Assembly: GCA_965230975.1 (NCBI GenBank)
Contig: OZ246402.1
Span: 101,771-165,770, forward strand
Origin: an uncultured Candidatus Saccharibacteria bacterium
GTDB taxonomy: Bacteria; Patescibacteriota; Dojkabacteria; J137
DNA length: 64,000 nucleotides
Reading direction: 5' to 3'
Shown: positions 3,439 to 45,334 of the stretch, piece after piece
Layout of the letters: each line of letters starts with the position of its first letter
How positions within the stretch are numbered: position 1 is the first letter of the stretch
Translations under genes and position numbers: made by a program
The notes under the pieces: model-generated
Told to the model about the DNA's origin: nothing
What the model saw: the letters and a program-made list of their open reading frames with translations, nothing else
Databases searched by the model: none

Positions 3439-3525
3439 CGGAGAGTGTGAGATTCGAACTCACGATCCAATTGCTTGGACACTCGTTTTCGAGACGAGCC
3501 CTTTCGGCCACTCAGGCAACTCTCC
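3439..3525 (-). tRNA. tRNA-Ser (anticodon CGA), type II with long variable arm
   Basis: The reverse complement reads GGAGAGTTGCCTGAGTGGCCGAAAGGGCTCGTCTCGAAAACGAGTGTCCAAGCAATTGGATCGTGAGTTCGAATCTCACACTCTCCG. It has a 7-bp acceptor stem, a GTTCGAATC T-loop, a CTCGAAA anticodon loop (CGA), and no encoded CCA. Confidence 0.8.
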
Positions 3526-8554: not shown

Positions 8555-8701
8555 ATAGCAATGATAGCAAATATAGTAAATAATTTTAAGTTAGTTCAGC
8601 AAATTAAGGTTTTCTAATATTGATATAAATTTTAGGCAACACCATTTAAATCAGTTTGTTATTCTGATATTCTGTTATAGATTATTCTAGATATTTTAAT
8701 T

Positions 8702-11700
8702 ATGAAACAGACCAAACTATTTCTTATAGCAACTGGCCTATTTGCAGTTTTAATTAGTACGTTTGGGCTTTTGAAAATATTTCATCCTCAAATCTTTGCA
8801 GATGGTGGAGATGTAACTCCGCCTACATTTAATTTTACAAGTGCTCCTACAGGTAATATTAGTGGTTCGAGCGTTACATATACTTTCTCAACAACTGATT
8901 CTGAATCTAGCATAAACAATATTGAGTATGCTCTAAATCCAGGTCCCACTCAAATTGTGCGAAAAATATATGTAGATGGCGTTCAAGTCGGCTCATCTCA
9001 CTACACATCTAATATTCCAGATATACTTGCAGATAACTTTACAATTGGTCAAGCAGGTGGCGTTGGGAGTAATTTTGCAGGTTCTATTGATGAAGTTAGA
9101 ATTTATAACAGGGCTTTAAATTCAAGAGAAGTTGATAACCTTTACGACTATCCGGCAGACACACTTAATGTGAAAATTCCAGTAGGTGGGACTATAGCCT
9201 CTTGGAACATGGATGGAGCATGGAATGGCACCCCCGGTGAAGTAACAGATGATCAAATAGGAATGAATGGGTCAATTCAGAACGGGGTAACGCAATCACC
9301 TGGTATTTTAGATGAAGCTGCAACATTTGACGGCGTAGATGATTACATTTCATTTGGAGATGTTTCATTGTTACCTTCTGGAAATAGTTACTACTCTATT
9401 AGTGCTTGGATTAAACCAGATGCAATGACTACTAGTGGCATTTTGGGTTGGGGAAACTTTGGTGCTACTTCATATGGTAGCAATGGACTTCTTTTACTAG
9501 ATACTGGTATTAATAACTTTTGGTGGGACGATGACTATTCTGAAACAACTGCAGACTTATCTGGTTCTTGGCATCATGTAGTTGTTACCTATGGTCCGGA
9601 CCGAATACCTTTAAACGCACAAGATGGAGTTTATGAAGAAACTTCTGAAGGTGCTACTGTTACCTTAAACGAAGTTGATTTCACTCTAGGAGAAGCTCAA
9701 ACCATAACTTTTTACTCTATAGATGAGTTTGGAAATACAGGCTCTACATCTTATAATTTTACATTTGTAGGTGATTCAGATGTGGATTTACCTAGCATTA
9801 CTTTTACAGAGTCACCTACGGGTCTGCAACCGGCCATTTTTACATATAGTGGAACAGCAACAGATGCTACTTCGAATATATCATACATAGACTGGCAAAT
9901 AGATTCTGGTAGTAGAAGCACTGTCTTTGCACTAGACGGAGATTATGATGAACAATCAGAGGGTTTTGAATTAGAGGTAAAAGCTTCACCTGAATTTGCG
10001 AATATTACGGGTACACACACCATAAAATTCTATGTGGTTGACATTGAGAATAACGAGCAAATGTATAGCTTTAACGTAGATGTTGATAGAGATGCTCCAA
10101 ACTGTACTCCTGGGTGGGTTTATCAAGAAAACCCTTACATAGGTAATACTGTAACATACGCAAATATTCACTGTACAGAAAATAGAGATCAAATAACAGC
10201 TGCTTACTATGATGTTTATCATGCTGTTGAAGGAACCCTAATTAGTCCTCAAAATATTAATCCCGTAGATGGGGTTTTCGATGAAAACTCTGAAGATTTC
10301 ACTTTTACTTTTACATTAGATGCCAATACAGATTTAGATGGGCCAATAATTGTTACTTTTAAAACGGAAGATGAAGCAGGTAATATAAGTTTAGATTTAG
10401 ACCCATTTGTTATTGAGTATGTAGACGATAGCGAACCTGTAATAAATCTAGACCAAGTAACTCCAGACCCGATCTCTGATACTACTCCTAAAATAACTGG
10501 TAGTTGTGTTGACGACACACAGTTTGATACAAACTCCTACATTAAATTAATTGAATATAATGTAGACGGAGGTGCTTGGAGCAATGTTGATTCATTAGAA
10601 GCACCTTATGAAGATAGTTATTCAGAAATATTCTCTTTTGAGCTACCAGAACAGTCAATTGGAAGCCATATAGTCAATATTAGATGTACAGACATGGCAG
10701 ATCAAGTATCTACTGATTCTGATACCTTTGAAATTGTAGCGGTAAACGAGGCATTATCTGCCGGCAACTTTTCTCATACAGATTCATTTACAGACCACAC
10801 TTTTCAAGACATACCCAACTCAACTTTAATTTGGGGTAATGGAAGGCTAAGATTAAAAGAAGATATAACAATTACAAGAAGTGTTATAGATAATGCAGAT
10901 TATCCTAACAGATATGCAGATGTTAGAAGTTATTATGGTGCAGTAAAAGACCCAGACGACTCAAATTTAATTTGGTATACAAAAAACAATAGAATTTATA
11001 AATATTTCATAAATTCTAATACAACTGAGGCATTGGACATGAATACTATTTTTGGATTTGATTTCTTTCAAGAATTACACAAAATTACTGTAAACAAATT
11101 TGGAACAAAGAAACTTTTGTGGGCACCAGATGCATATGGAATGTCTGTATACAACATTACAGATAATCAGACTGTAAGAATAACTATTACCGGTGGAGTT
11201 AACGAACTAGACCCAGATGTAGATAGAGGTAGATTAGGTGCTTACCTTACAACTGGTACACCTGTACCAATGGGTTACACAAACTTTATTTACTATAACT
11301 TTAATAACACGTTAACAAACACAGGAGATGATGTTACAACTCAGTGGCCTATAGATGCAAATTTCAGTGAAACAGATGCTTTAAGAATGTTTAGAGATAA
11401 AACAACAAATACTAACGATGTTTACTTAAGTTACTACACAAATGGCAAACTTGTTAAATTTAATGATAACAACACACCCAGTAACTTTGCAGATGACCAA
11501 GTGCTCAGTTATTCTGGATACACATCAATTTTTGGGTTTAGTTTAGATTCACAAGGAAGACTTATTTTTGGAACTGCTAATAACTCAAACGGAGAATTAT
11601 TTGTTGTTACTAACGATAATAATACCCCTTATATTGGTGGGGACGATACAATAACTAGAATAGCAACAAATAGGCAACTTGGTTTTGGGGGAGTGTTTGG

Positions 11701-14092
11701 AGTTGATTTCATGGAAGGTCAAAATGATGTAGGTGATCAAATTCTAGTAACAATGGCAGGCGGTGATATGGTCTACATTAATTTCAATGATACCTATACA
11801 GACTTATTAGATGATACCTTCATTCCGTTACCGGTTAGAGGAGGAATTAGGCCAGGAGATGTAACGGCTTTAATAATTGATTATGATAACCTATATGTAA
11901 ATATAGATACTTTAGGTTTTTATAAAGTACATTTAAACAGGGGTTGGGTAGATTCGGGAGAAGCCATAGGAGTTCCACAAAGACCTTCGCAAAAATTAAT
12001 ACTTGATAATTTTGTTGCAAGTGCAGAAACAGGAAGTAATATAGTTGCTGGCACTGTTCAAGAGCCTAACTTCTTTGAAAAATTGATAAATGCTTTTATT
12101 CCAAAAGTTAAAGCTGCAGAAAATGGTATAAGTTACTATATTTCTAATGATGATGGAGTAACTTGGCAGGAAGTTACGTTAGGACAAATTAAAAACTTAA
12201 ATCCAAACGACTACAGGGTTAAGTTTAAAATAGTTATGACCGAATTAACTGGACAAAGCCCTACTCTTCAGGATTATACAGTTAGTTTTGCAGGGTATAC
12301 TACACCACAGCAGGCTCAAGAGGCAACATCACTAAGCATTATTGCTCACCCAACATCTGTATTAAAGAACACTAATTTTAATATAACCGTCTCTGCTCTA
12401 GATACTTTGGGATTTGTGGTACCAACCTATTCGAATATCGTTACACTAGAGTTACTTAACAATGGTAATGTGGCATCCGGATTAACTCCATCTTCTATTA
12501 ATATTACTAATGGAACTGCAACAATTACTAATGCACAAGTGCAAAATACAGGAGTCTATAGAATTAGAGCAACTCAAGGTGCTTTGACTGCTCAATCTAA
12601 TCAGCTTACAGTGACCCAACAAAGCTTTATTCCTATATCTGCAAATGCTACATTGTCAGTAATTAACTTTGAGGCAGATAAGTACACAATAAAGAAAGGT
12701 GATTCTGTTACATTAACCTGGACAAGTGCAAACCTTGATACATTAACATTAACCCCTAACAAAGGAGTTGTAGACTCTACCGGTTCTTATACACTATCTT
12801 TAGATGAAACAACAGAATTTACCCTTTCGGGGACTGGTCCAAATGGAGAGCTCTCCTCTAGTCTAACCATTGTTGTACAAGATGAAACTTTACAAGATTT
12901 AACCCTTAAAACTTCTCAAGATATAAGTGTTAAACAAGGTGAAAAAGCTACTATAACATGGCAAACAACTGGTGCAGATACTGTATTTATCGATTTAATT
13001 GGGAAAAATGTAAGTTCTAAAGGTTCTTATGAATTTTACCCTACAGAAGATACGGTTGTCACAATAACCGCATTCCAAGGAGATAAATCTATATCTCAAA
13101 AAATAAAAATAAACGTGTTAAATGATAATAGCGAAGCAAACCAAGTTGTAGGAGTCTTATCACAGGTACCAACAGCAGGTGTATTTGTTTTAGGAATAAT
13201 AAACTCAGGTTTATTAGTAAGCTTATTATTGAACGTACTAACTAGTGTTCAAAGCAAACTTACATTAGACACCTTGTCAAATATACTTAGGATTATTGGT
13301 ATTATTCCATTCAAAAAGAGGCGTGGGTTTGTTTATCAAACAAACACAAGTAAACCGGTTGCTTTTGCAGTATTAAATATCCTAAGCAAAGGGAAAACGT
13401 TAACCTCAATAATTTCAGATCTAAATGGTATTTATTACGAACCATTTTTATCTAAAGGCGAATATATTTTAGATGTAAAGAGAGAGGAACATGCATTCCC
13501 AACCGCAAAGAAGAGGCCTGCACAGTTGACCGAATTTGATTTTTACAAAGGTGAAGAGCTAAACATTACTAGCAATAAGTTACAACAGGCAATTGTAATA
13601 CCAATGGATAAAACTAACATGTCAGATAAGAAGAGTCTAATAAACTGGAATAAAGTTAGCTTGTCGTTAACTAGACTTTTAGTGTGGTTACAATGGACAG
13701 TTTATCCTATGTGTGTACTTGCTCTTGTATTCTTGATTACATCTCCAAACATCGTTAATCTATTAGTATTTGTATTCTACTTTGTAATAGTTGCATTCAA
13801 GCTTAAAGAAAAGTTAAAAACACCATCTTTAGAAGGTTTGGTTTATGATAAAGAAGCCAACAAAGGAATTTCTGGAGTTGTAGTAGAACTTAGAGCAAAT
13901 AATCAATTAGTTGCTCTAGAAATTACAAATTCAAAAGGAAGATATTCTTTCTTTGTTCCAGAAGGTAAATATAGCATCCACTTATCTCACGAGCATTATG
14001 CAATGAGAACAGAATTCGGACAAGTTTTAGAAGTAGATATAAAAGATACAAAAAAGAAAATGAATTTTGGAATGGGTAAACTTTCTGCTTAA
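8702..14092 (+). CDS. giant (1796 aa) surface protein: signal anchor, 2x LamG-like (concanavalin-type) domains, Ig/Big-like and beta-propeller-like repeats, C-terminal polytopic membrane region with two CarboxypepD_reg-like domains
   Basis: N-terminal hydrophobic segment. LamG_3 motifs (NFTIGQAGGVGSNFAGSIDEVRIYNRALNSREVDNLY; ATFDGVDDYISFGD...SAWIKPD). Repeated TLTPNKGVVDSTGSYTLSLDETTEFTLSGTG Ig-like modules. C-terminal TM helices (LVWLQWTVYPMCVLALVFLITSPNIVNLLVFVFYFVIVAF) are interleaved with GISGVVVELRANNQLVALEITNSKGRYSFFVPEGKYSI (CarboxypepD_reg-like). Confidence 0.7.
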   Translation: MKQTKLFLIATGLFAVLISTFGLLKIFHPQIFADGGDVTPPTFNFTSAPTGNISGSSVTYTFSTTDSESSINNIEYALNPGPTQIVRKIYVDGVQVGSSHYTSNIPDILADNFTIGQAGGVGSNFAGSIDEVRIYNRALNSREVDNLYDYPADTLNVKIPVGGTIASWNMDGAWNGTPGEVTDDQIGMNGSIQNGVTQSPGILDEAATFDGVDDYISFGDVSLLPSGNSYYSISAWIKPDAMTTSGILGWGNFGATSYGSNGLLLLDTGINNFWWDDDYSETTADLSGSWHHVVVTYGPDRIPLNAQDGVYEETSEGATVTLNEVDFTLGEAQTITFYSIDEFGNTGSTSYNFTFVGDSDVDLPSITFTESPTGLQPAIFTYSGTATDATSNISYIDWQIDSGSRSTVFALDGDYDEQSEGFELEVKASPEFANITGTHTIKFYVVDIENNEQMYSFNVDVDRDAPNCTPGWVYQENPYIGNTVTYANIHCTENRDQITAAYYDVYHAVEGTLISPQNINPVDGVFDENSEDFTFTFTLDANTDLDGPIIVTFKTEDEAGNISLDLDPFVIEYVDDSEPVINLDQVTPDPISDTTPKITGSCVDDTQFDTNSYIKLIEYNVDGGAWSNVDSLEAPYEDSYSEIFSFELPEQSIGSHIVNIRCTDMADQVSTDSDTFEIVAVNEALSAGNFSHTDSFTDHTFQDIPNSTLIWGNGRLRLKEDITITRSVIDNADYPNRYADVRSYYGAVKDPDDSNLIWYTKNNRIYKYFINSNTTEALDMNTIFGFDFFQELHKITVNKFGTKKLLWAPDAYGMSVYNITDNQTVRITITGGVNELDPDVDRGRLGAYLTTGTPVPMGYTNFIYYNFNNTLTNTGDDVTTQWPIDANFSETDALRMFRDKTTNTNDVYLSYYTNGKLVKFNDNNTPSNFADDQVLSYSGYTSIFGFSLDSQGRLIFGTANNSNGELFVVTNDNNTPYIGGDDTITRIATNRQLGFGGVFGVDFMEGQNDVGDQILVTMAGGDMVYINFNDTYTDLLDDTFIPLPVRGGIRPGDVTALIIDYDNLYVNIDTLGFYKVHLNRGWVDSGEAIGVPQRPSQKLILDNFVASAETGSNIVAGTVQEPNFFEKLINAFIPKVKAAENGISYYISNDDGVTWQEVTLGQIKNLNPNDYRVKFKIVMTELTGQSPTLQDYTVSFAGYTTPQQAQEATSLSIIAHPTSVLKNTNFNITVSALDTLGFVVPTYSNIVTLELLNNGNVASGLTPSSINITNGTATITNAQVQNTGVYRIRATQGALTAQSNQLTVTQQSFIPISANATLSVINFEADKYTIKKGDSVTLTWTSANLDTLTLTPNKGVVDSTGSYTLSLDETTEFTLSGTGPNGELSSSLTIVVQDETLQDLTLKTSQDISVKQGEKATITWQTTGADTVFIDLIGKNVSSKGSYEFYPTEDTVVTITAFQGDKSISQKIKINVLNDNSEANQVVGVLSQVPTAGVFVLGIINSGLLVSLLLNVLTSVQSKLTLDTLSNILRIIGIIPFKKRRGFVYQTNTSKPVAFAVLNILSKGKTLTSIISDLNGIYYEPFLSKGEYILDVKREEHAFPTAKKRPAQLTEFDFYKGEELNITSNKLQQAIVIPMDKTNMSDKKSLINWNKVSLSLTRLLVWLQWTVYPMCVLALVFLITSPNIVNLLVFVFYFVIVAFKLKEKLKTPSLEGLVYDKEANKGISGVVVELRANNQLVALEITNSKGRYSFFVPEGKYSIHLSHEHYAMRTEFGQVLEVDIKDTKKKMNFGMGKLSA

Positions 14093-15063
14093 ATTGCTAC
14101 ACCAGCTCCTCCAAAGGGGGAGCTGTCATTGTCTAAGCTATATTTCTCAAGAATAAAATTTATTGTTACATCTATTAGGCTTAAAAATTTATTGTAAAGT
14201 TCATGACTATTTTCCAATAAATATCGTATCTCTGCTATTGGATCTTCGTGGACAGTATCTAGTATTTCATCTCCTCTACTTTTAGAAAGCATACGATAAT
14301 AATCATATGCTAAATCTTTGTAACGATTTCCTGTTGAATAATCAATAATTTTTAATATAAAGATTTTAAGTAACTCTTCTATAAATATTTCTAAACTTTC
14401 AAAATCTACATATTGGAGCATTAAATTTTTAGAAGTAATTCTTAAATTATTTAAAATATATTCTTTTAACAAAAAAATAACCTCTTCCCTATCTATACTG
14501 CTATTTACAAGATTAATATTCTTATTTTCTAAAACCCATCTTACAAGGTTATCATCTAAATAATCTTTTACTGGTTGTTGGGGCTTAACTTTATCTGATT
14601 CAAAAAAAACATCCGGCGATTTTGCTGTTGAATAATCTAATACTGTTCCAATAAGGTTGTTTATATAGTCAAAGTCTGGATCTATCTCATTAGTGTAATT
14701 TGAATCTTCTAAATACTGCTTTATAAATTTTACCTCTCCATTTACAATAAAAGCTGTTATTTTACCTCCATCCACTTTTATCTGTATTTGAAACGAACCA
14801 TTCGATATGGTAGTTCTATTAATCTTCCTAACATCATTTATATAGTCAGACAGTGCCTCAAGTATTAAAATTGATACTCCATTAATATCAGACTCTCTTG
14901 AAAAATGATCCTGACTAGACCCTCTAATAGTTGATTCATCTGTCCATAAATTTATAGATAGATTACCAAATGGAAAATCTACTTTATAAATTTCAATTTT
15001 TACTAATCCGAGACCTTCTAAATTATTTGAATCTCCTAAGGGGTGTGCAAAGTATCCAAACAT
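14089..15063 (-). CDS. hypothetical protein (convergent with, and overlapping by 4 nt, the giant surface-protein gene)
   Basis: 324-aa ORF, soluble, no recognisable motif. It ends ...SSPFGGAGVAI. Confidence 0.45.
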   Translation of the reverse strand: MFGYFAHPLGDSNNLEGLGLVKIEIYKVDFPFGNLSINLWTDESTIRGSSQDHFSRESDINGVSILILEALSDYINDVRKINRTTISNGSFQIQIKVDGGKITAFIVNGEVKFIKQYLEDSNYTNEIDPDFDYINNLIGTVLDYSTAKSPDVFFESDKVKPQQPVKDYLDDNLVRWVLENKNINLVNSSIDREEVIFLLKEYILNNLRITSKNLMLQYVDFESLEIFIEELLKIFILKIIDYSTGNRYKDLAYDYYRMLSKSRGDEILDTVHEDPIAEIRYLLENSHELYNKFLSLIDVTINFILEKYSLDNDSSPFGGAGVAI

Positions 15064-15791: not shown

Positions 15792-16535
15792 TTAAAGAAA
15801 TATTACAAATATAAAATTAATAATTAGTGCCAAGAATGAAAGGCCAGCTAATAAAAATGAAATTTTATATATAATATTTTCTAATGACTTTGAGAAATTA
15901 TTTCTATAACCAAGAGCATGTGGTAATAACAACCCTAACAACAACCCTGTAATTAAACCTCCTAAATGAGCCCAGTTATTTATATTTGTTCCGGGCATTA
16001 ACCCAAAGAATAATGAAAATAATACCAATGGAATTATATCTTCAAAAGAAAATGGAAACGAAACTCCAAACCTAGAACGTCTTAAAGTACCACCTAATAA
16101 CAAACCCATAAGTGCAAAAATGCCACTAGAAGCACCTACCGAAAGTATATTTGTATTAGTTTGAAATATTACTCTTTCCGAAAAAAATATAACAAATGTT
16201 AATAGCGAACCTCCCAAAGAGCCTAAAATATAGGTTAATGCAAGAACTTTTTCATTATAAAAATTTGTAACAATAGAACCTAATCTATACAGAGAATACA
16301 TATTTATTAATATATGAAAAAGGTCAAAGTGTAAAAAACCAGAAGTAATTAATAGCCAAACTTGACCAACACTTACCATTTGATAATCAAAACCACCTAT
16401 TAAAGAAACTAAATCATAACTCGCTCTACTGCTAGGAGACATTGACAATAGCAAATTGGCAACTAAAAACATTAGTATGTTTAATACTATTAATATATTT
16501 AACCAGCTAAATTGGATTTTAAATTCAAATTTCAT
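15792..16535 (-). CDS. rhomboid-family intramembrane serine protease
   Basis: 6-7 TM helices. Catalytic GASSGIFALMG (GxSG) and the downstream His in AHLGGLITG. Confidence 0.85.
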   Translation of the reverse strand: MKFEFKIQFSWLNILIVLNILMFLVANLLLSMSPSSRASYDLVSLIGGFDYQMVSVGQVWLLITSGFLHFDLFHILINMYSLYRLGSIVTNFYNEKVLALTYILGSLGGSLLTFVIFFSERVIFQTNTNILSVGASSGIFALMGLLLGGTLRRSRFGVSFPFSFEDIIPLVLFSLFFGLMPGTNINNWAHLGGLITGLLLGLLLPHALGYRNNFSKSLENIIYKISFLLAGLSFLALIINFIFVIFL

Positions 16536-38599: not shown

Positions 38600-41500
38600 T
38601 TATCTAATAATTAAGCTACTCATGCTAGTGATTTTAATCTGCTTACTTATTGGTAATATTGTGCTTTGCAAATAGTGTACTGTATATTTATTACCTCCTG
38701 CAACTCGAACATATTCAACTTTATTCCAAAGTGAGCTAAAGAGACGTGGGTCAGCAAGTTTTTTCCCTCCTGAACTAAATATAATATTTCCTTTTCCTAC
38801 AGCCTCTTCCATAACTAGTTTTTCTGTCAGGTTTGATGGAGAAGACGCATATTTAGGAATGCCCTTTGCAACAACTTTTGAAGCAATGGAGCTAATTCCA
38901 TAGCCTATTGCAGCGGTTACCCCCCCTGTTACACCACCTACAACTACAGCTTGAGCTAAACCTTCGACTGAAAATTGTTTTTCTTGAACTGCAACTTGTG
39001 CAGTATAGATAATAGCACCCGTCGCTGCACCAACTGCAATACCTACTCCAATTGCGCACACTACTGTCGCTAAACAAGCTGCCCCTGCTAACGCACCTGC
39101 CCCTACCGTTAATGCCGTAGACACAGCTGCACCTATTATTTCCCACTTATTTTCTTTGAAGAAATTACCTATCTCTTCCCAGAACATTCCACTAAAATCA
39201 TTCCCATTCAGCGGATCTACTGGATACACATAATCATTCTGTGTTCCACCTTCTACAGGGTCAACTTGCAAGAATCTACCTAATTCTGGAACATAAACTC
39301 TTGCACCCATTTGAATAAAATCAATATCAAACCTAACCTCTGTATCCCTTAAAGCACTACCACCAAAACCATAATCTGTAGTTGCAGCAATTTGAACCCC
39401 AAAAGGATCGTACCTAAAAATACTACCTGTATTCTTAGCAAGCACATTACCAGTTGAACTCATAATACTGTATTCAGAAACATCTGCTTTAACGGTCAAC
39501 CTTAAACCTGGTAAAGAAACATACCTTTCAATAATTGTACCTGCACCATTCTTTAAAACATCTGCAGAACTAGAACTACTACTAAACCCATAAACCTTAA
39601 CACTCTCACCCGAATTAAAATTACTGTTAATAACTCTACCTAAAACATCTCGAGTATATTGAATCCTACTACCCTCTTGAGAAACCGCTACATTTTGATC
39701 TGAAACATCATATTCAAAACTCAAATTACCCATCTCTATTGTATTACCGTGAGAATCATATTGAATCCCAGCAAACTTATTATTAGACGCTTGTATTAAT
39801 TTATCTGCAGCATCGTAACAATACTCGTTAGTAACAGTCACACCCTCAATAGTCAAAGAATCTGATGTCCTATTAAAATTCTTGTTTGAATTTTGAAAAG
39901 AACAATTAGTTGCCTGATTATAGTTATATGCAAATTGCCTATCTCCATAATCTGCTGCAACTAACCTATCTGCTTTATCAAAAGTATAGCTCTGATTATA
40001 AACTTGAGAATCTTGTGTAAACTTTTGAGCTAAAGTCAAACCTGATTGAGATTTAGTCAATTCTTCTGAAATAATTGTTCCATCACTTTGCCTCCAAGTA
40101 TATTTAATAGGCCTTTCTAAAGAATCTCTTGTAGTCCCTAAGTAAGCCAATTGTCCAGCCTCTGGATAAGTAATTGTAGAAACTCTACCTAAAGAATCGT
40201 AACTTACATTTGCATAAACAACTCCATTGTAAAGTTTAGATGTAACTTGAGAATAATCATTGTAAGTCCAAGACTCTGTACCGACTTCAGAAACCTTTTG
40301 AGTTAACCTATTTTGATTATTGTAAGTATAATTTGAAACACTTCCTAATGCATCTGTGTATTTAACTAAATTACCTAAGTAATCGTATTCAGAAATACTT
40401 ACAGTAGAACCATCCGTTACTAATCTTTTTAGTGGATTTCCACCATATGCAAAGTTATTAGTAACAGTCTTACCAGTCTTTTCATTGTTACTTGCAATAA
40501 CCTTGCTTTCTACTCTTCCTCTTGAATCATAATTTGTACAGTTCCATGCCTCGTCATTAATTTTACTCGCAACAACCCTACCAGAAGCATCATAAACAAC
40601 TTGTGTGCTTCTACCTACTTGTAAACCATCTCCATCTGGGTCTACCTCGGTTTTACCCTTTGCAAAACCAGCTTGAGAAACGGGGTCTGATGCAGGTGTA
40701 CATGGATTATCTACACTTTCTGTTGCTCCATAATATGAATATTTAGTAACAGATCCACCTGCTGAAGTTTTTGAAAGTTGCCTAAAGTAACCACTACCTT
40801 GAGGCTCATAACTTGCACTACTTTGATAATTTAAACCATTTGGATCTAAGACTTTATTTGCTACAAGACCGTATGCTGGGTCTTGATAGTTTGTTTTAGT
40901 TTCAATATTGCCGAGTTGTTGATCATAAATAACGTTTGTTGTAGCCAAGTTGTAACCAGGTGCTAAGTTGAGCCATTTATTAGTTTCTGTAATACCAGGG
41001 CCAGAAATTGTTGCATTAATAACAGGTGTAGTACCAAAACTTGCAAAATCTAATCTTACTCTATAAACCTTGCCTGCTTCTAAGGCAATTGAACCAGTTT
41101 TTTCAACACTTGTTGCAGATCTATTTGCCCAATTATCAATAATCAGTTGATCGTTAACAAATAATCTTGCACCGTCTGTATGTTGAAGTTTAAAGTTATA
41201 GGTTCCATTTTGAGCAATGCTTAATTTCCCTGTTAAAGAGAACCCTACTCCATCCATTCCCGCCTCTTTCGTAATGGGGAATGCTTGGTTTCTATAATCA
41301 AAATTCATTACTGCTTTGTCGTTATTGATTCCAAACTTGTGTAATTTTGGACTTCCGAATAACGTTGCTGTTGTTGGAGTATTACTTTTAACTTGATAAT
41401 AAGCAACTGCTGGACCTTGTAACCCCTCATCATATCTAGTTTCTGTTTTTGGAACTTGATTGACATAAGTAGATAATGGTTTTCTATCTGTACCAAACCA

Positions 41501-44500
41501 ACTTGCAGGTGCTGGGCCATAACTTTCTAAAGGTCTATCGTCTGAATCATAAATTGTAGTGCTTTTTAAACCTGTAGGACCAGTTGTACTTAAAATAATA
41601 TCTTTTGCACTATCCCATTCAGTTGTTGTACACAAAGCTATGTTGTCGCAAATCTTTGTAGTTCTATACTTAGAATCAAATTCTAAATATTTTGAATAAC
41701 CTACAGGTTCAGGTATTCCAACTAAATGTTGTTTAGAAGCTCTTGGGTAATATTCTAAGGTATGCTGTAAATTGGAATTCCCCGTATTACTTGGAAAGTA
41801 AACTTTTGTAGCTCTACCTAAAGCATCGTATTCAAAGTTGTAGCTAGCACCTTGTTCGTTTGCATTTCTTAAACCAGCCATTATGCTATCAATCATTCCT
41901 GTGTCTCTTAAAGAAGCTATTCTTCCATCTGTGTAGTAACCATACTCAAAAGATGCATCACCCGGGTAGTCAATTTTGTACAAATTGCCTTTATAGTAAT
42001 TAAACTTTGTCCATTTACCATCTGTTGTATAGAATGCACATAAGTGACCTGTTGGAATAGCATAGTCACCGCTAGTTGCGCTACACTCTGCTTCGCCTTG
42101 ATAGTAAAGTTTTCCAAACCTTGAGGAATCTACACCATCTATAATTCTTCTTAACCTTGTAAACCCACCTACATTTGCATACTCGTACTTTAATCCTGCT
42201 GGATTTTTATCATCATATGCAGTACTGGTTTCTTTTAATTTAAACTGCCCCGAGTTATCTAGTACATCATAAATATAAGTTGTGCCAGCTGTATCTGTAA
42301 AGGTATACGTACCATCATTATTTTTAACTAACCAACCATCCTCATTTACAGGTGATTTGTAACCTCCATTGTTGTAAGTGTATAAAGATTCTGTTCCATC
42401 TGTAGATATCATTACAACATCTTGATTTGCTTTTACTTTTAATGATTCAAAAGGGATAGAGCCATTAGAATCTAATGTTAAGTTCCATCCACTTGGCAAA
42501 GCTTTTACTTCTGGAATTAAATATTTACTTTCAATAACACCATTTAAACTAGGTCCAGTCCATTTTAAGGCTACTGATGCACCACCAGTTTTTTCGTACA
42601 TATCTACTACAATTTTGTTTGGTTGACCTGCCGTTAATTGAACACTGCCAGACCAAGCCTCAGTGTACCCATGGTCTGTCCAATTTTGAGCGATAATATT
42701 TCCATTTAAAGTAAGTCTGGAACCATCATCTGAACCAACTCCAAATGTATAATTGCCAGTAGTGGGAGCTATCACATAACCTTCATATCTAACTAAAAAG
42801 TTATCAACAGGGCCACCTACAACTGGTGAATACCCATCCCAATTATAGTTAATTTGAGGTTCATTTCTTAGTAAGAATCTAGTTGTATTTACATTAAAAT
42901 CATGGGTGCCATTGTCGTAATAATACTTACCTGTTAAACCCGTATTATTACTTAATGGAACAGGTGCTGTTCTAAAATATTCTGAAGGGACTACTTTTTG
43001 TGTACCATCTGGCATTTGAACATAAAGAATCGCTGTTGCTCCACCTCCAAACTCTACCATCTCCATTTTAATTGGCCATAGTTGACCCTCTGTAAGTGCT
43101 ACAGTATTGCCCATCCACTTTGTTCCGCAACATGGTGCATCTAAAATTACTGTGTTATTTCCATAAACTTTTATATTGTCATCTCCCATTACTCCAAATT
43201 TATAGTTACCTGTTGTTGGAGCAACAAAGTAACCTGACCATTGAGCCGAGAAATTATCTACACTTACTATTCCTGGGTAAGGAGACCCAGTTAGCCAATA
43301 ATTATCAATATTTGCATTTATAGTTGAATAGATTGGATCTCCGCTAAAAGTAGTGTTATTCCAATATTTAGCAGATAAACCCTCTCTGGTTATTGTTGGG
43401 GTATTGTATTCTAAGCCGATTCCAATATTCCCACCCAATGCATTCATTGAATGCGAGCTATTTGTTGTATATGCATTACCTGTTGCTAAGTTAACAGCAA
43501 AAGGACCTGCTTCATCGTAAGCTTGTGTAGGGTCTTTTCCTGCTCTAAAGTCCGTTTTGAAAGTTGCACTAAAAGACGGGCTTCCATGTTGATAATAATC
43601 GTCTCTAACGTATACACTCCACCTATATGTCTGACCATTTTGTAAAATACCATCTACCACAGTCATTGTTGGTGATGTAGTAAAACCACTTCTTTGTACA
43701 ATAGTATTATTGCTATCCCACAAAATAAATTCGTGGGTTAAGGTGTCTCCATCAGCATCATTTGCAGGGTTAGCTCTTAGGTTAACAGTTGTTGTTGTTA
43801 CTACAGAATTATCTGCAGGTGCACTTAAAGTAGCGTTATTATTTGGAATGTTGTTATAGGCCAAATTTAGTCTTGCATTGGCTGCATCAAAAGCTTTAAA
43901 TGTATCATATCTGTTTTCCTCTCCCCAAATAATTAACCAACCTCCATAAACTTTATTATCTGACAACCATTGGATTAAAGGTTTCATATCAATGTAACCG
44001 GAGGTTGTCATACGAGCACTCATTATAGGAGACCACCCAACGCAGTTAAAACTTATGCAACTTGCCCATGCAACGTTAATTTGTGCATTTGTATTGTAAA
44101 AACCGTTCCATCGATATGATTTGTAGCCCATTTGCAAATATAAATTTGCTCCTAAAACTTGCTTCCCAATTATTTCATCGTAATTAAATCTAACTACACT
44201 TCTCCAAGATTTTTGACCACCATCATTCAATCCACCTGTATTCATATCGCAATAAACATAATCACATGCATATCCATTACTTTTGTAAGAATAATATGCC
44301 CTAGATCCATTTTCTACTGTTTTTGTTGGGTAAACTGCAGGGTCTATTGATATGGGGAAGTTTTCTGGTTTTAATGATTTTAGCCAGTCTGCATTAAGAC
44401 TTACTTTAACTGTATTACCCTCAATTGTTTGACTTATTACATCTTCTGTAACTGGCCCAATGTTAGTAGCAATAATATATAGTGGTTCAATTACGAAGAC

Positions 44501-45334
44501 TTCATTACCAACTTTAATATTTAAAGCGCCTTTTTCTTCCGTTGAATATGATAATTCACCTCCAACAACTTCAAATTCAAAGTTTGGATTTTTTATGTAC
44601 TTATTTAATACAATATATTCTTTAATATAGTCATCATGAAATTCGTAAACCAAATCTACATTTTCCCAAGCATTTCTATAAATTACTGCACCTTCTAATT
44701 CTTCAGGTTTTACATTATTTATATTTTTGGGTTTGAAAGTTAGTTCTTGACCAGCTACATTAATCGTTATTCCATTAGAAAGTTTTTTATATTTAACATC
44801 TAATTTGCTTGAGTCTATCTCTAAATCTTCTTTGTTCTTTTTTACATTGTTTTTTATCTCTTTAAATGAATCATTCTCTTTTGTAAATCTATCTGTCAAA
44901 CTTTGCTCTACAATATTTAAACCTTCTTGTGTAGTATATTTTTTTGTTTTCTCATCTATATTTTTTGTATTTGAAGTATTTTTCTTTAGGTTTTCTATTT
45001 CTTCATTTTTTATAGACTTTAACTCTTGTTTATTATCGTTTGCAGTTGTACCACTTAACTTATCTGAATAATCAACCCCACTACCTAAAGGATATGGTGA
45101 TTCTTGTACTTTTAATGGGTCTATCCTATCTGCTTTCTTTATTTTGGAGTCTTGATAATTCTTATTCTCTTTGATTGCTTTCGAATTTAATCGAACAAAC
45201 TCAGATTCAGATACTTTCTTGCGTAACTCAATTATATTTTGTGCATTAATGGCTATTGGCTGAAATGTTTGAAATATTACTAAGAGGCACAGCAAGACAC
45301 CTACCCTACTTAAGTGTTTTAGGATTATATCCAT
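38600..45334 (-). CDS. secreted RHS/YD-repeat polymorphic toxin (2244 aa) with three PA14 domains and a variable C-terminal domain
   Basis: Signal peptide [34 protein letters not shown]14 hallmarks [26 protein letters not shown] and [14 protein letters not shown]. More than 15 YD repeats ([28 protein letters not shown], and others). The Rhs core ends [38 protein letters not shown]. The ~190-aa C-terminal tail has glycine-zipper hydrophobic stretches. Confidence 0.85.

Follow-up and report, generated by a model that had tools for sequence, protein, structure and literature searches.

The locus

The DNA analysed here (the window) is a stretch of 64,000 nucleotides (64 kb) from an uncultured Candidatus Saccharibacteria bacterium assigned by GTDB to the Dojkabacteria (assembly GCA_965230975.1, contig OZ246402.1, positions 101,771 to 165,770 of the forward strand). 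Its DNA is AT-rich, with about 30-35% G+C, and housekeeping genes are encoded in it. The subject of the analysis is a large open reading frame (ORF) at 8702..14092 on the + strand, which starts with ATG and encodes a product of 1796 aa (the query); it had been placed exactly by a first-pass annotation made from the sequence alone. Its neighbours are an arginyl-tRNA synthetase gene (upstream and divergent), an ORF of 324 aa, an adenylate kinase gene and a rhomboid gene. From the N-terminus, the query consists of a predicted signal peptide, a head with a LamG domain, a stalk with immunoglobulin (Ig)-like domains, and a C-terminal module of ~300 aa that, judged by sequence comparison, belongs to a conserved and previously undescribed family of anchor modules. 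All features of the query described below lie on the + strand.

A hydrophobic segment at aa 4-27, with a Kyte-Doolittle peak of 2.37 (19-aa window), agreed with the N-terminal signal proposed initially. It lies within a predicted Sec signal peptide at aa 1-33 (8702..8800), composed of MKQTK, a 19-aa hydrophobic core and a cleavage site read from the sequence as ..QIFA-DGG. A sequence search of the PDB with the whole protein returned nothing meaningful.

The C-terminal module

Based on Kyte-Doolittle hydrophobicity, three C-terminal segments were strongly hydrophobic (aa 1481-1516, 1659-1681 and 1683-1703), and the CarboxypepD_reg model (PF13620) matched the whole protein with 52.7 bits (E 5.6e-14) in two stretches. 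An AlphaFold2 model of the module was built with 21 family sequences and had a mean predicted local distance difference test score (pLDDT) of 77.7. The first element is a predicted stop-transfer anchor, transmembrane (TM) helix 1, at aa 1491-1515 (13172..13246), modelled as a helix of low confidence at module residues 27-51; its hydrophobicity peaked at 2.25, and the family median of the maximum was 2.01. This was followed by a short amphipathic helix of 11 residues at aa 1522-1532 (13265..13297; module residues 58-68), which carries the conserved motif LqalGllp..kpqG, and then by a KKRR cluster. Across the family, the amphipathic segment had a median maximum hydrophobicity of 1.2, reaching at least 1.0 in 71% of members and at least 1.6 in 11%.

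The next element was a transthyretin-like (CarboxypepD_reg) sandwich at aa 1541-1637 (13322..13612), with seven strands in the model at module residues 77-173 (pLDDT about 76-93) and a conserved extra loop, FPxxxxRPxxLxxxDFYKGE. Taken alone, this sandwich 1 scored 17.4 bits with the Pfam model, below the gathering score of 32.3, and its assignment was supported by hhalign and by the predicted fold. It was succeeded by a helical hairpin, TM2-TM3, at aa 1649-1704 (13646..13813; module residues 185-216 and 220-240, pLDDT above 87), with a four-residue loop, TSPN, and hydrophobicity peaks of 1.93 and 2.22, respectively. The module ended with a second transthyretin-like sandwich at aa 1710-1793 (13829..14080), which scored 35.2 bits with PF13620 against the cut-off of 32.3 and 29.6 bits with SdrD_B, and was modelled with seven strands at module residues 246-329. 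The two units, each formed by a basic linker and a sandwich, were homologous to one another (hhalign 98.6%, E 1e-15). The two CarboxypepD_reg-like domains named in the first-pass annotation were therefore both recovered, as were its hydrophobic segments; its count of four to five membrane helices was replaced by three TM helices and one amphipathic helix.

When the module model was compared with the PDB by Foldseek, only single-domain matches were obtained (the transthyretin-like domain of carboxypeptidase D, CnaB and SdrD B), with query-normalised template modelling (TM) scores of at most 0.27. UafA was also among the neighbours of the sandwiches, and no solved structure with the whole arrangement was found in this search. 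The query has no LPXTG motif, and neither it nor 21 family members matched an NCBIfam or Pfam model for PEP-CTERM, other curated sorting domains or SLH. The string nearest to LPXTG, VPTAG, occurs where TM1 begins (aa 1489), about 300 residues from the end of the protein, and of its residues the proline alone is conserved in the family. No sortase signal or other curated sorting signal was thus found, in keeping with the earlier statement that the protein carries no sortase, PEP-CTERM or S-layer anchor.

Averaged over 76 members, the net charge changed from -0.4 ahead of TM1 to +2.9 behind it and +3.3 ahead of TM2, with 93% of members positive at each of the latter two sites; the TM2-TM3 loop was close to neutral (about 0), and the stretch following TM3 carried +1.3. 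Given that the exported N-terminal part lies outside, this charge pattern predicts a cytoplasmic location for the sandwiches. Taking hydrophobicity, the positive-inside rule and the AlphaFold2 model together, the module probably crosses the membrane three times with both sandwiches on the inner side.

The module as a family

The extent of the family depended on the search. A word-index search with the C-terminal 332 aa retrieved one fragment (P0001, 45% identity); the same search with the full-length protein retrieved a 99% identical strain variant and matches to LamG only, and a 21-sequence profile gave five matches. The resulting impression of an orphan module was misleading and was corrected by an exhaustive HMMER search and re-analysis of its matches. 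With a two-sequence profile, 3489 proteins were matched at E < 1e-3 and 61 at E < 1e-30. For the family counts, the best 148 of the 3489 matches (sequence-cluster representatives) were re-scored by HMMER. About 95 of these 148 contained the whole ~300-aa module as one stretch, in proteins of about 400-3658 aa, and the module always ended 0-50 residues from the C-terminus; the remaining matches were ordinary CarboxypepD_reg repeat proteins. The description of the anchor as bespoke to this protein was consequently dropped. The comparison instead indicates that the C-terminal ~300 aa represent a conserved, undescribed anchor module family of about a hundred sequence clusters in related bacteria.

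The query is the founding member of this unnamed family and displays its layout, its motifs and its hydrophobicity and charge pattern. The motifs conserved in an alignment of 76 sequences and present in the query are LqalGllp..kpqG.VfD, FP....RP..L...DFYKGE, IPMD, a P...N...Y hairpin and P.l.G.V.D. The invariant residues include G78, G112, Y124, F135, P136, Y151, G153, P170, N222, Y229 and G282 (module numbering). An N-terminal hydrophobic signal was found in 62 of 84 complete members, and further hydrophobic segments almost never occurred in the exported parts. The exported parts of 42 members contained domains of extracellular type only: Big_13 was present in 19, and the others included FG-GAP, Big_3_3, NHL, Kelch, TSP3 and fn3.

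No Pfam or NCBIfam model was found that spans the module beyond its CarboxypepD_reg domains, nor any PDB entry for the whole module, and one relative is named 'carboxypeptidase-like regulatory domain-containing protein' by NCBI. A literature search for the module in bacteria of the candidate phyla radiation (CPR) found nothing. A scan of GTDB with a six-sequence alignment identified three loci, in two metagenome-assembled genomes (MAGs) of Candidatus Dojkabacteria and one of Candidatus Woesebacteria; by sequence, the closest relatives that could be placed were Candidatus Dojkabacteria. A phage origin of the module was rejected, as none of 50,697 phage records matched.

One LamG domain, permuted and nested

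The head had been described as a double LamG domain. The Laminin_G_3 model (PF13385) matched with 67.9 bits against a gathering cut-off of 27.6 (E 1.4e-18), again in two stretches, and so both this family and CarboxypepD_reg were supported by significant profile matches. The stretch encoded first, aa 85-148 (8954..9145), corresponds to the C-terminal third of the domain, with aa 87-144 matching profile positions 93-150 of 151 (54.3 bits). The stretch encoded second, aa 163-301 (9188..9604), corresponds to the N-terminal two-thirds, with aa 210-322 matching positions 1-112 (37.6 bits). No contiguous LamG_3 domain colinear with the profile was present: the two pieces stand in swapped order, and a full match was obtained only after re-ordering. 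When aa 163-301 were artificially joined to aa 82-160, a single match to positions 1-150 of 151 resulted, with 95.3 bits. In canonical single-LamG proteins (P0014, P0017 and P0023), the segment matching query aa 206-297 is followed at once by the one matching aa 87-144, and tandem-LamG proteins were colinear with query aa 88-300 as the end of one domain followed by the start of the next.

The residues on either side were assigned to a divided Ig-like domain, D1. Its N-terminal half, aa 35-84 (8804..8953), aligned with the first half of the following Ig-like domain, D2 (z = 9.7, 0/500 shuffles), and gave a weak match of the OmpL47 type (E 6e-6, below the cut-off). Its C-terminal half, aa 302-358 (9605..9775), aligned with the second half of D2 (z = 5.2). 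When aa 35-84 were spliced to aa 302-358, the product aligned end to end with D2 (aa 359-464) with a score of 116 (z = 13.6, 0/500 shuffles). In the orthologue P0066, D1 is uninterrupted: query residues 33-81 correspond to P0066 residues 396-448 and query residue 303 to P0066 residue 455, which leaves 6 residues at the insertion point compared with 221 in the query.

Since the profile coordinates of the two pieces are complementary, their order is opposite in canonical proteins and a full-length match appears once they are re-ordered, the head is read from its sequence as one circularly permuted LamG domain (aa 85-301). Since the spliced flanks align with D2 and P0066 holds D1 uninterrupted, this domain is placed in a loop of D1, the first of the Ig-like domains. 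Two independent LamG domains were ruled out by the same three observations on the pieces, the canonical proteins and the re-ordered construct. The permuted domain probably originated by capture of one out-of-phase period from a tandem LamG array. In an AlphaFold2 model of the head (mean pLDDT 66, pTM 0.62), both LamG pieces were confident (pLDDT about 75-92) and the flanks were not. A Foldseek search with this model gave nothing significant; permutation of the domain and disorder of its flanks make this outcome expected and hence uninformative.

The stalk

The divided domain D1 is followed by D2, D3 and D4 (aa 359-464, 465-576 and 577-684; 9776..10753), defined by pairwise local alignments. 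The four domains, each of about 105 aa, were related to one another (D1-D2, z = 13.6; D2-D4, z = 6.8; D1-D3, z = 5.7; D3-D4, z = 4.0). None of D1-D4 had a Pfam match, and D2-D4 were kept in the orthologues at 29-45% identity.

The central region, aa 685-1140 (~450 aa; 10754..12121), was found by ungapped off-diagonal self-comparison to consist of ~50-aa repeats, with copies near aa 855, 905, 957 and 1010 and a best off-diagonal score of 53 against a shuffle maximum of 40. The matches of this region to propeller models were all weak (Reg_prop, E 0.028; in orthologues, SGL, 0.0066, and BNR, 0.0047), and a PDB search with a profile of the region found no relative. On the sequence evidence, the region is probably a beta-propeller. 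It is followed by a small BNR/Asp-box-like domain containing YYISNDDGVTW (aa 1141-1206; 12122..12319), recognized by weak BNR and Sortilin-Vps10 matches, which was the best conserved part across the orthologues (48% identity).

Three further Ig-like domains lie next to the membrane (aa 1207-1308, 1309-1396 and 1397-1473; 12320..13120). They were similar to repeats in P0018, and their matches to Ig-type Pfam models were weak. The last two, IgB and IgC, were clearly related (z = 7.7, 0/500 shuffles). The proposed Ig-like stalk of repeated 90-aa modules therefore held for its two ends, with four N-terminal and three membrane-proximal Ig-like domains, and was amended in the middle, where the ~50-aa repeats occur.

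Orthologues and strain variation

Ten orthologues (P0066, P0067, P0072, P0073, P0075, P0077, P0079, P0080, P0121 and P0150) were homologous to the query from about aa 302, or later, to the end. The closest eight shared 35-42% identity with the query, and P0121 and P0150 shared about 26-27%; P0066 was 42% identical across about 1500 aa. The heads of the orthologues differed: that of P0067 is a Kelch propeller, and the remaining heads had no Pfam match. Compared with seven orthologues, identity was lowest at the tip (0.25 for the C-terminal half of D1 and 0.29 for D2), 0.35-0.48 in the stalk and 0.44 in sandwich 1. A 1953-aa ORF in a Dojkabacteria MAG (L001) was 76% identical to P0066.

No conserved synteny and no shared partner gene were found around the large orthologues. 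At L001:6868-8892, the orthologue is directly followed by a gene for a DUF2207 membrane protein with a PEGA/CarboxypepD_reg-like domain (a sandwich with TM helices).

In a second strain (P0002, locus L005), the protein differed by 18 scattered substitutions. The 147-bp upstream region was identical, including a set of short direct repeats at 8661..8689. Read from the sequence, ATTCTG occurs at 8661 and 8669, 8 bp apart as described earlier, and the third copy, at 8684, is the degenerate ATTCTA. Nothing indicating a function was found for these repeats. The suggestion that they regulate the gene or drive phase variation gained no support, and phase or antigenic variation was set aside because the substitutions are scattered and the upstream region is identical, which is weak evidence from two strains only.

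Smaller family members and their operons

The module also terminates smaller proteins. The last of six syntenic genes in L003 (Woesebacteria), L008 and L009 (L003:456-6882, L008:195-7385 and L009:616-7774) encodes a module protein of about 640-690 aa, from a ~680-aa subfamily, whose ectodomain carries Big_13. The order in this operon is a polytopic membrane protein, a PamT-like protein, a chaperone-like protein, a protein with a Pam-pilin-C-like end, a second chaperone-like protein and the module protein. The comparison with the Pam pilus system was prompted by a weak PamT match in one family member. Pam pilins have been reported in Saccharimonadia and Microgenomatia, and the system comprises the pilins PamA/B, the membrane-anchored chaperones PamC/D, the tip protein PamT and PamR, which is described with one TM helix and two FnIII domains and is proposed as the terminator/anchor (bioRxiv 10.64898/2026.03.03.709456).

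The product of the second gene matched the NCBIfam models CPR_pilus_PamT (E 1.2e-6, positions 5-241 of 241) and CPR_Pam_pilin_C (E 2e-8), and that of the fourth gene had a C-terminal Pam_pilin_C-like domain (E 7.5e-7), all below the curated cut-offs. The third and fifth genes encode proteins with a signal peptide and a C-terminal hydrophobic helix, except that gene 5 of L003 shows the C-terminal helix only; this layout is that given for PamC and PamD in the preprint cited above. Neither the module nor the last gene of the operon is described there, and the word 'carboxypeptidase' does not occur in it. In L006 (6001-12018), two short module proteins (413 and 446 aa) flank a gene for a 1101-aa tail-fibre-like protein with Collagen and Peptidase_S74 domains on the opposite strand. 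By association, the operon and fibre-gene contexts suggest an anchoring role for the module.

No Pam-like gene was found in the window, and no Pam pilin, tip or chaperone domain of NCBIfam was matched by the 1796-aa protein. Membership of the query itself in a Pam pilus system was rejected on both grounds.

Genomic surroundings

No second copy of the C-terminal module was found elsewhere in the window, and scans for promoters and terminators performed no better than on shuffled sequence. The convergent 324-aa ORF (14089-15063, - strand) runs 4 bp into the large gene, across its stop codon, and had no Pfam match; the sister strain (L005) has a counterpart called as 350 aa, without the overlap. 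The rhomboid intramembrane protease gene (15792-16535, - strand) is two genes downstream of the large ORF. A second giant ORF, at 38600-45334 on the - strand, encodes a product of 2244 aa in which three PA14 domains are combined with a GLEYA domain and RHS repeats. It represents a surface or toxin-like protein of a different kind, without the C-terminal module. A tRNA gene at 3439-3525 (- strand) was the sole Rfam match at the gathering score in the window.

Discussion

A life attached to other cells is assumed for CPR bacteria, and to our knowledge little is known of how their surface structures are fixed without an outer membrane or, in the present case, a sortase signal. We interpret the 1796-aa protein as a modular, adhesin-type surface protein of an ultrasmall CPR bacterium, in which the tip (here a lineage-specific LamG) varies and the stalk and the undescribed membrane anchor are conserved, and assign this interpretation a probability of roughly 0.6. 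An exported, membrane-anchored and adhesin-like protein is suggested by the signal peptide, the domains of extracellular type, the orthologues with variable heads and the relatives in Dojkabacteria and Woesebacteria. The adhesin-like surface protein of the first-pass annotation thus fits the evidence overall, apart from its bespoke anchor, its number of LamG domains and helices and its account of the stalk. We infer the adhesin function, the cytoplasmic position of the sandwiches and the link to pili, each from the lines of evidence given above.

In the mechanism proposed, Sec would export an ectodomain of roughly 1450 aa until TM1 halts transfer. The hairpin and both sandwiches would remain on the cytoplasmic side, so that three helices and two folded domains would hold the protein in the membrane. 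Such anchoring may resist pulling better than a single helix and would need no sortase. The LamG tip would attach to a ligand carried by a partner cell or surface; this ligand is probably a glycan. Specificity may sit in this exchangeable tip, because the orthologues keep the stalk and anchor yet carry different heads. The general role of the module in these bacteria may be to fix extracellular fibres to the cell membrane, since it also ends smaller proteins with Ig-like domains that are encoded last in operons weakly similar to Pam.

Several points weigh against this interpretation. LamG and Ig-like domains are generic, and a role in binding or adhesion is a prediction from them. The head model is moderately confident (pLDDT 66) and had no significant Foldseek match, and the single jelly-roll fold is deduced from the sequence. 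The cytoplasmic position of the sandwiches is a prediction from hydrophobicity, the positive-inside rule and the AlphaFold2 model only, and each structural neighbour found (SdrD B, CnaB pilins and carboxypeptidase D) is extracytoplasmic. The amphipathic segment, in the 71% of members noted above, is at the level of hydrophobicity designated 'putative transmembrane' (at least 1.0). Furthermore, the Pam-like matches of the relatives are below the NCBIfam curated cut-offs, and the large gene is outside any such operon.

The points on topology raise an alternative in which the protein has the same role and the opposite arrangement of its anchor. If the amphipathic segment also crossed the membrane, there would be four crossings, and both sandwiches would stand outside as wall-proximal pedestals like CnaB and SdrD B, in line with the location of all of their Foldseek neighbours (UafA included) and with the hydrophobicity of the segment between TM1 and sandwich 1, which reaches at least 1.6 in 11% of members. 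This arrangement would, however, place about 10 Lys and Arg residues per protein on the extracellular side and almost none inside, violating the positive-inside rule in 93% of members. The amphipathic helix has just 11 residues in the AlphaFold2 model, and the query segment averages about 0.5 on the Kyte-Doolittle scale, with no window reaching 1.6. We therefore regard an external position of the sandwiches as rather unlikely.

Instead of being a free-standing adhesin, the protein could also serve a polymeric fibre on the cell surface, of the Pam type or another, as its terminator or its base in the membrane, with the Ig-like domains docking other subunits. The 640-690-aa relatives that end a six-gene operon with PamT-like, Pam-pilin-like and two chaperone-layout genes (L003, L008 and L009) would be consistent with such a base, as would the two short members flanking the collagen/Peptidase_S74 fibre gene in L006. 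For the query itself the idea appears improbable: the window contains no Pam-like gene, the neighbours of the large gene encode an arginyl-tRNA synthetase, an adenylate kinase and a rhomboid protease, and the orthologues bear large heads of their own (Kelch, LamG), as expected of a self-contained adhesin. A transmembrane receptor that relays ligand binding by the ectodomain through a three-helix bundle to the cytoplasmic sandwiches, and so signals to a partner, is very improbable: the predicted location of the sandwiches and the long, near-invariant loop of sandwich 1 (F135, P136, R141, P142, D149, Y151, G153 and E154), which resembles a binding site, are set against the finding of no known output domain with Pfam or NCBIfam, no conserved partner gene beside the large orthologues, and the great length and variability of the exported parts, features more typical of adhesins.

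The interpretation as a modular adhesin can be compared with known systems. The giant LamG/DUF2341 surface proteins of CPR and of the DPANN archaea, with tandem Laminin_G_3 domains (matches P0003-P0064), belong to the same LamG_3 family as the query (30-52% identity). Like the query, they are large, have a signal peptide and are presumed to act at the cell surface. They differ in that the query has a single out-of-phase, permuted LamG inside an Ig-like domain, and its stalk and anchor are unrelated to theirs. Circular permutation of the jelly-roll fold is classically known from concanavalin A and the legume lectins, and in concanavalin A it is made post-translationally. The LamG domain of the query belongs to the same superfamily as concanavalin A and is likewise permuted, but its permutation is encoded in the gene and combined with a domain insertion.

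The MSCRAMM and pilin adhesins of Gram-positive bacteria also have a modular Ig-like stalk, and the nearest structural neighbours of the query's sandwiches are SdrD B, CnaB and the transthyretin-like domains of carboxypeptidase D. Unlike those adhesins, the query has no LPXTG, and its sandwiches are interleaved with three TM helices and predicted to be cytoplasmic instead of forming an external stalk. With the Pam system, which is specific to CPR, it shares C-terminal anchoring by TM helices without a sortase or outer membrane (bioRxiv 10.64898/2026.03.03.709456), and a further link is that the smaller module proteins close operons with weak PamT and Pam-pilin matches and chaperone-like genes. 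The query differs in having neither a Pam pilin domain nor Pam genes nearby, and its three helices and two transthyretin-like domains are unlike PamR.

A broader reading of the module goes further and is put forward tentatively, as a possibility. The module may be an undescribed TM anchoring device, seen so far only in the Dojkabacteria/Woesebacteria group of CPR, whose cytoplasmic transthyretin-like domains connect giant adhesins, Pam-type pili and collagen-like fibres with the inside of the cell, either mechanically or in function; it might then be a membrane base of Pam-type pili that was not noted in the preprint.

The permuted LamG inside an Ig-like domain offers a clean natural case of domain insertion combined with permutation. 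The module provides a searchable marker for surface proteins in CPR genomes of the Microgenomatia type, and it offers an idea of how such proteins may be retained in the membrane, by three helices and two folded domains predicted to be cytoplasmic. Given that the stalk and anchor are conserved, specificity for a host or ligand probably resides in the exchangeable heads.

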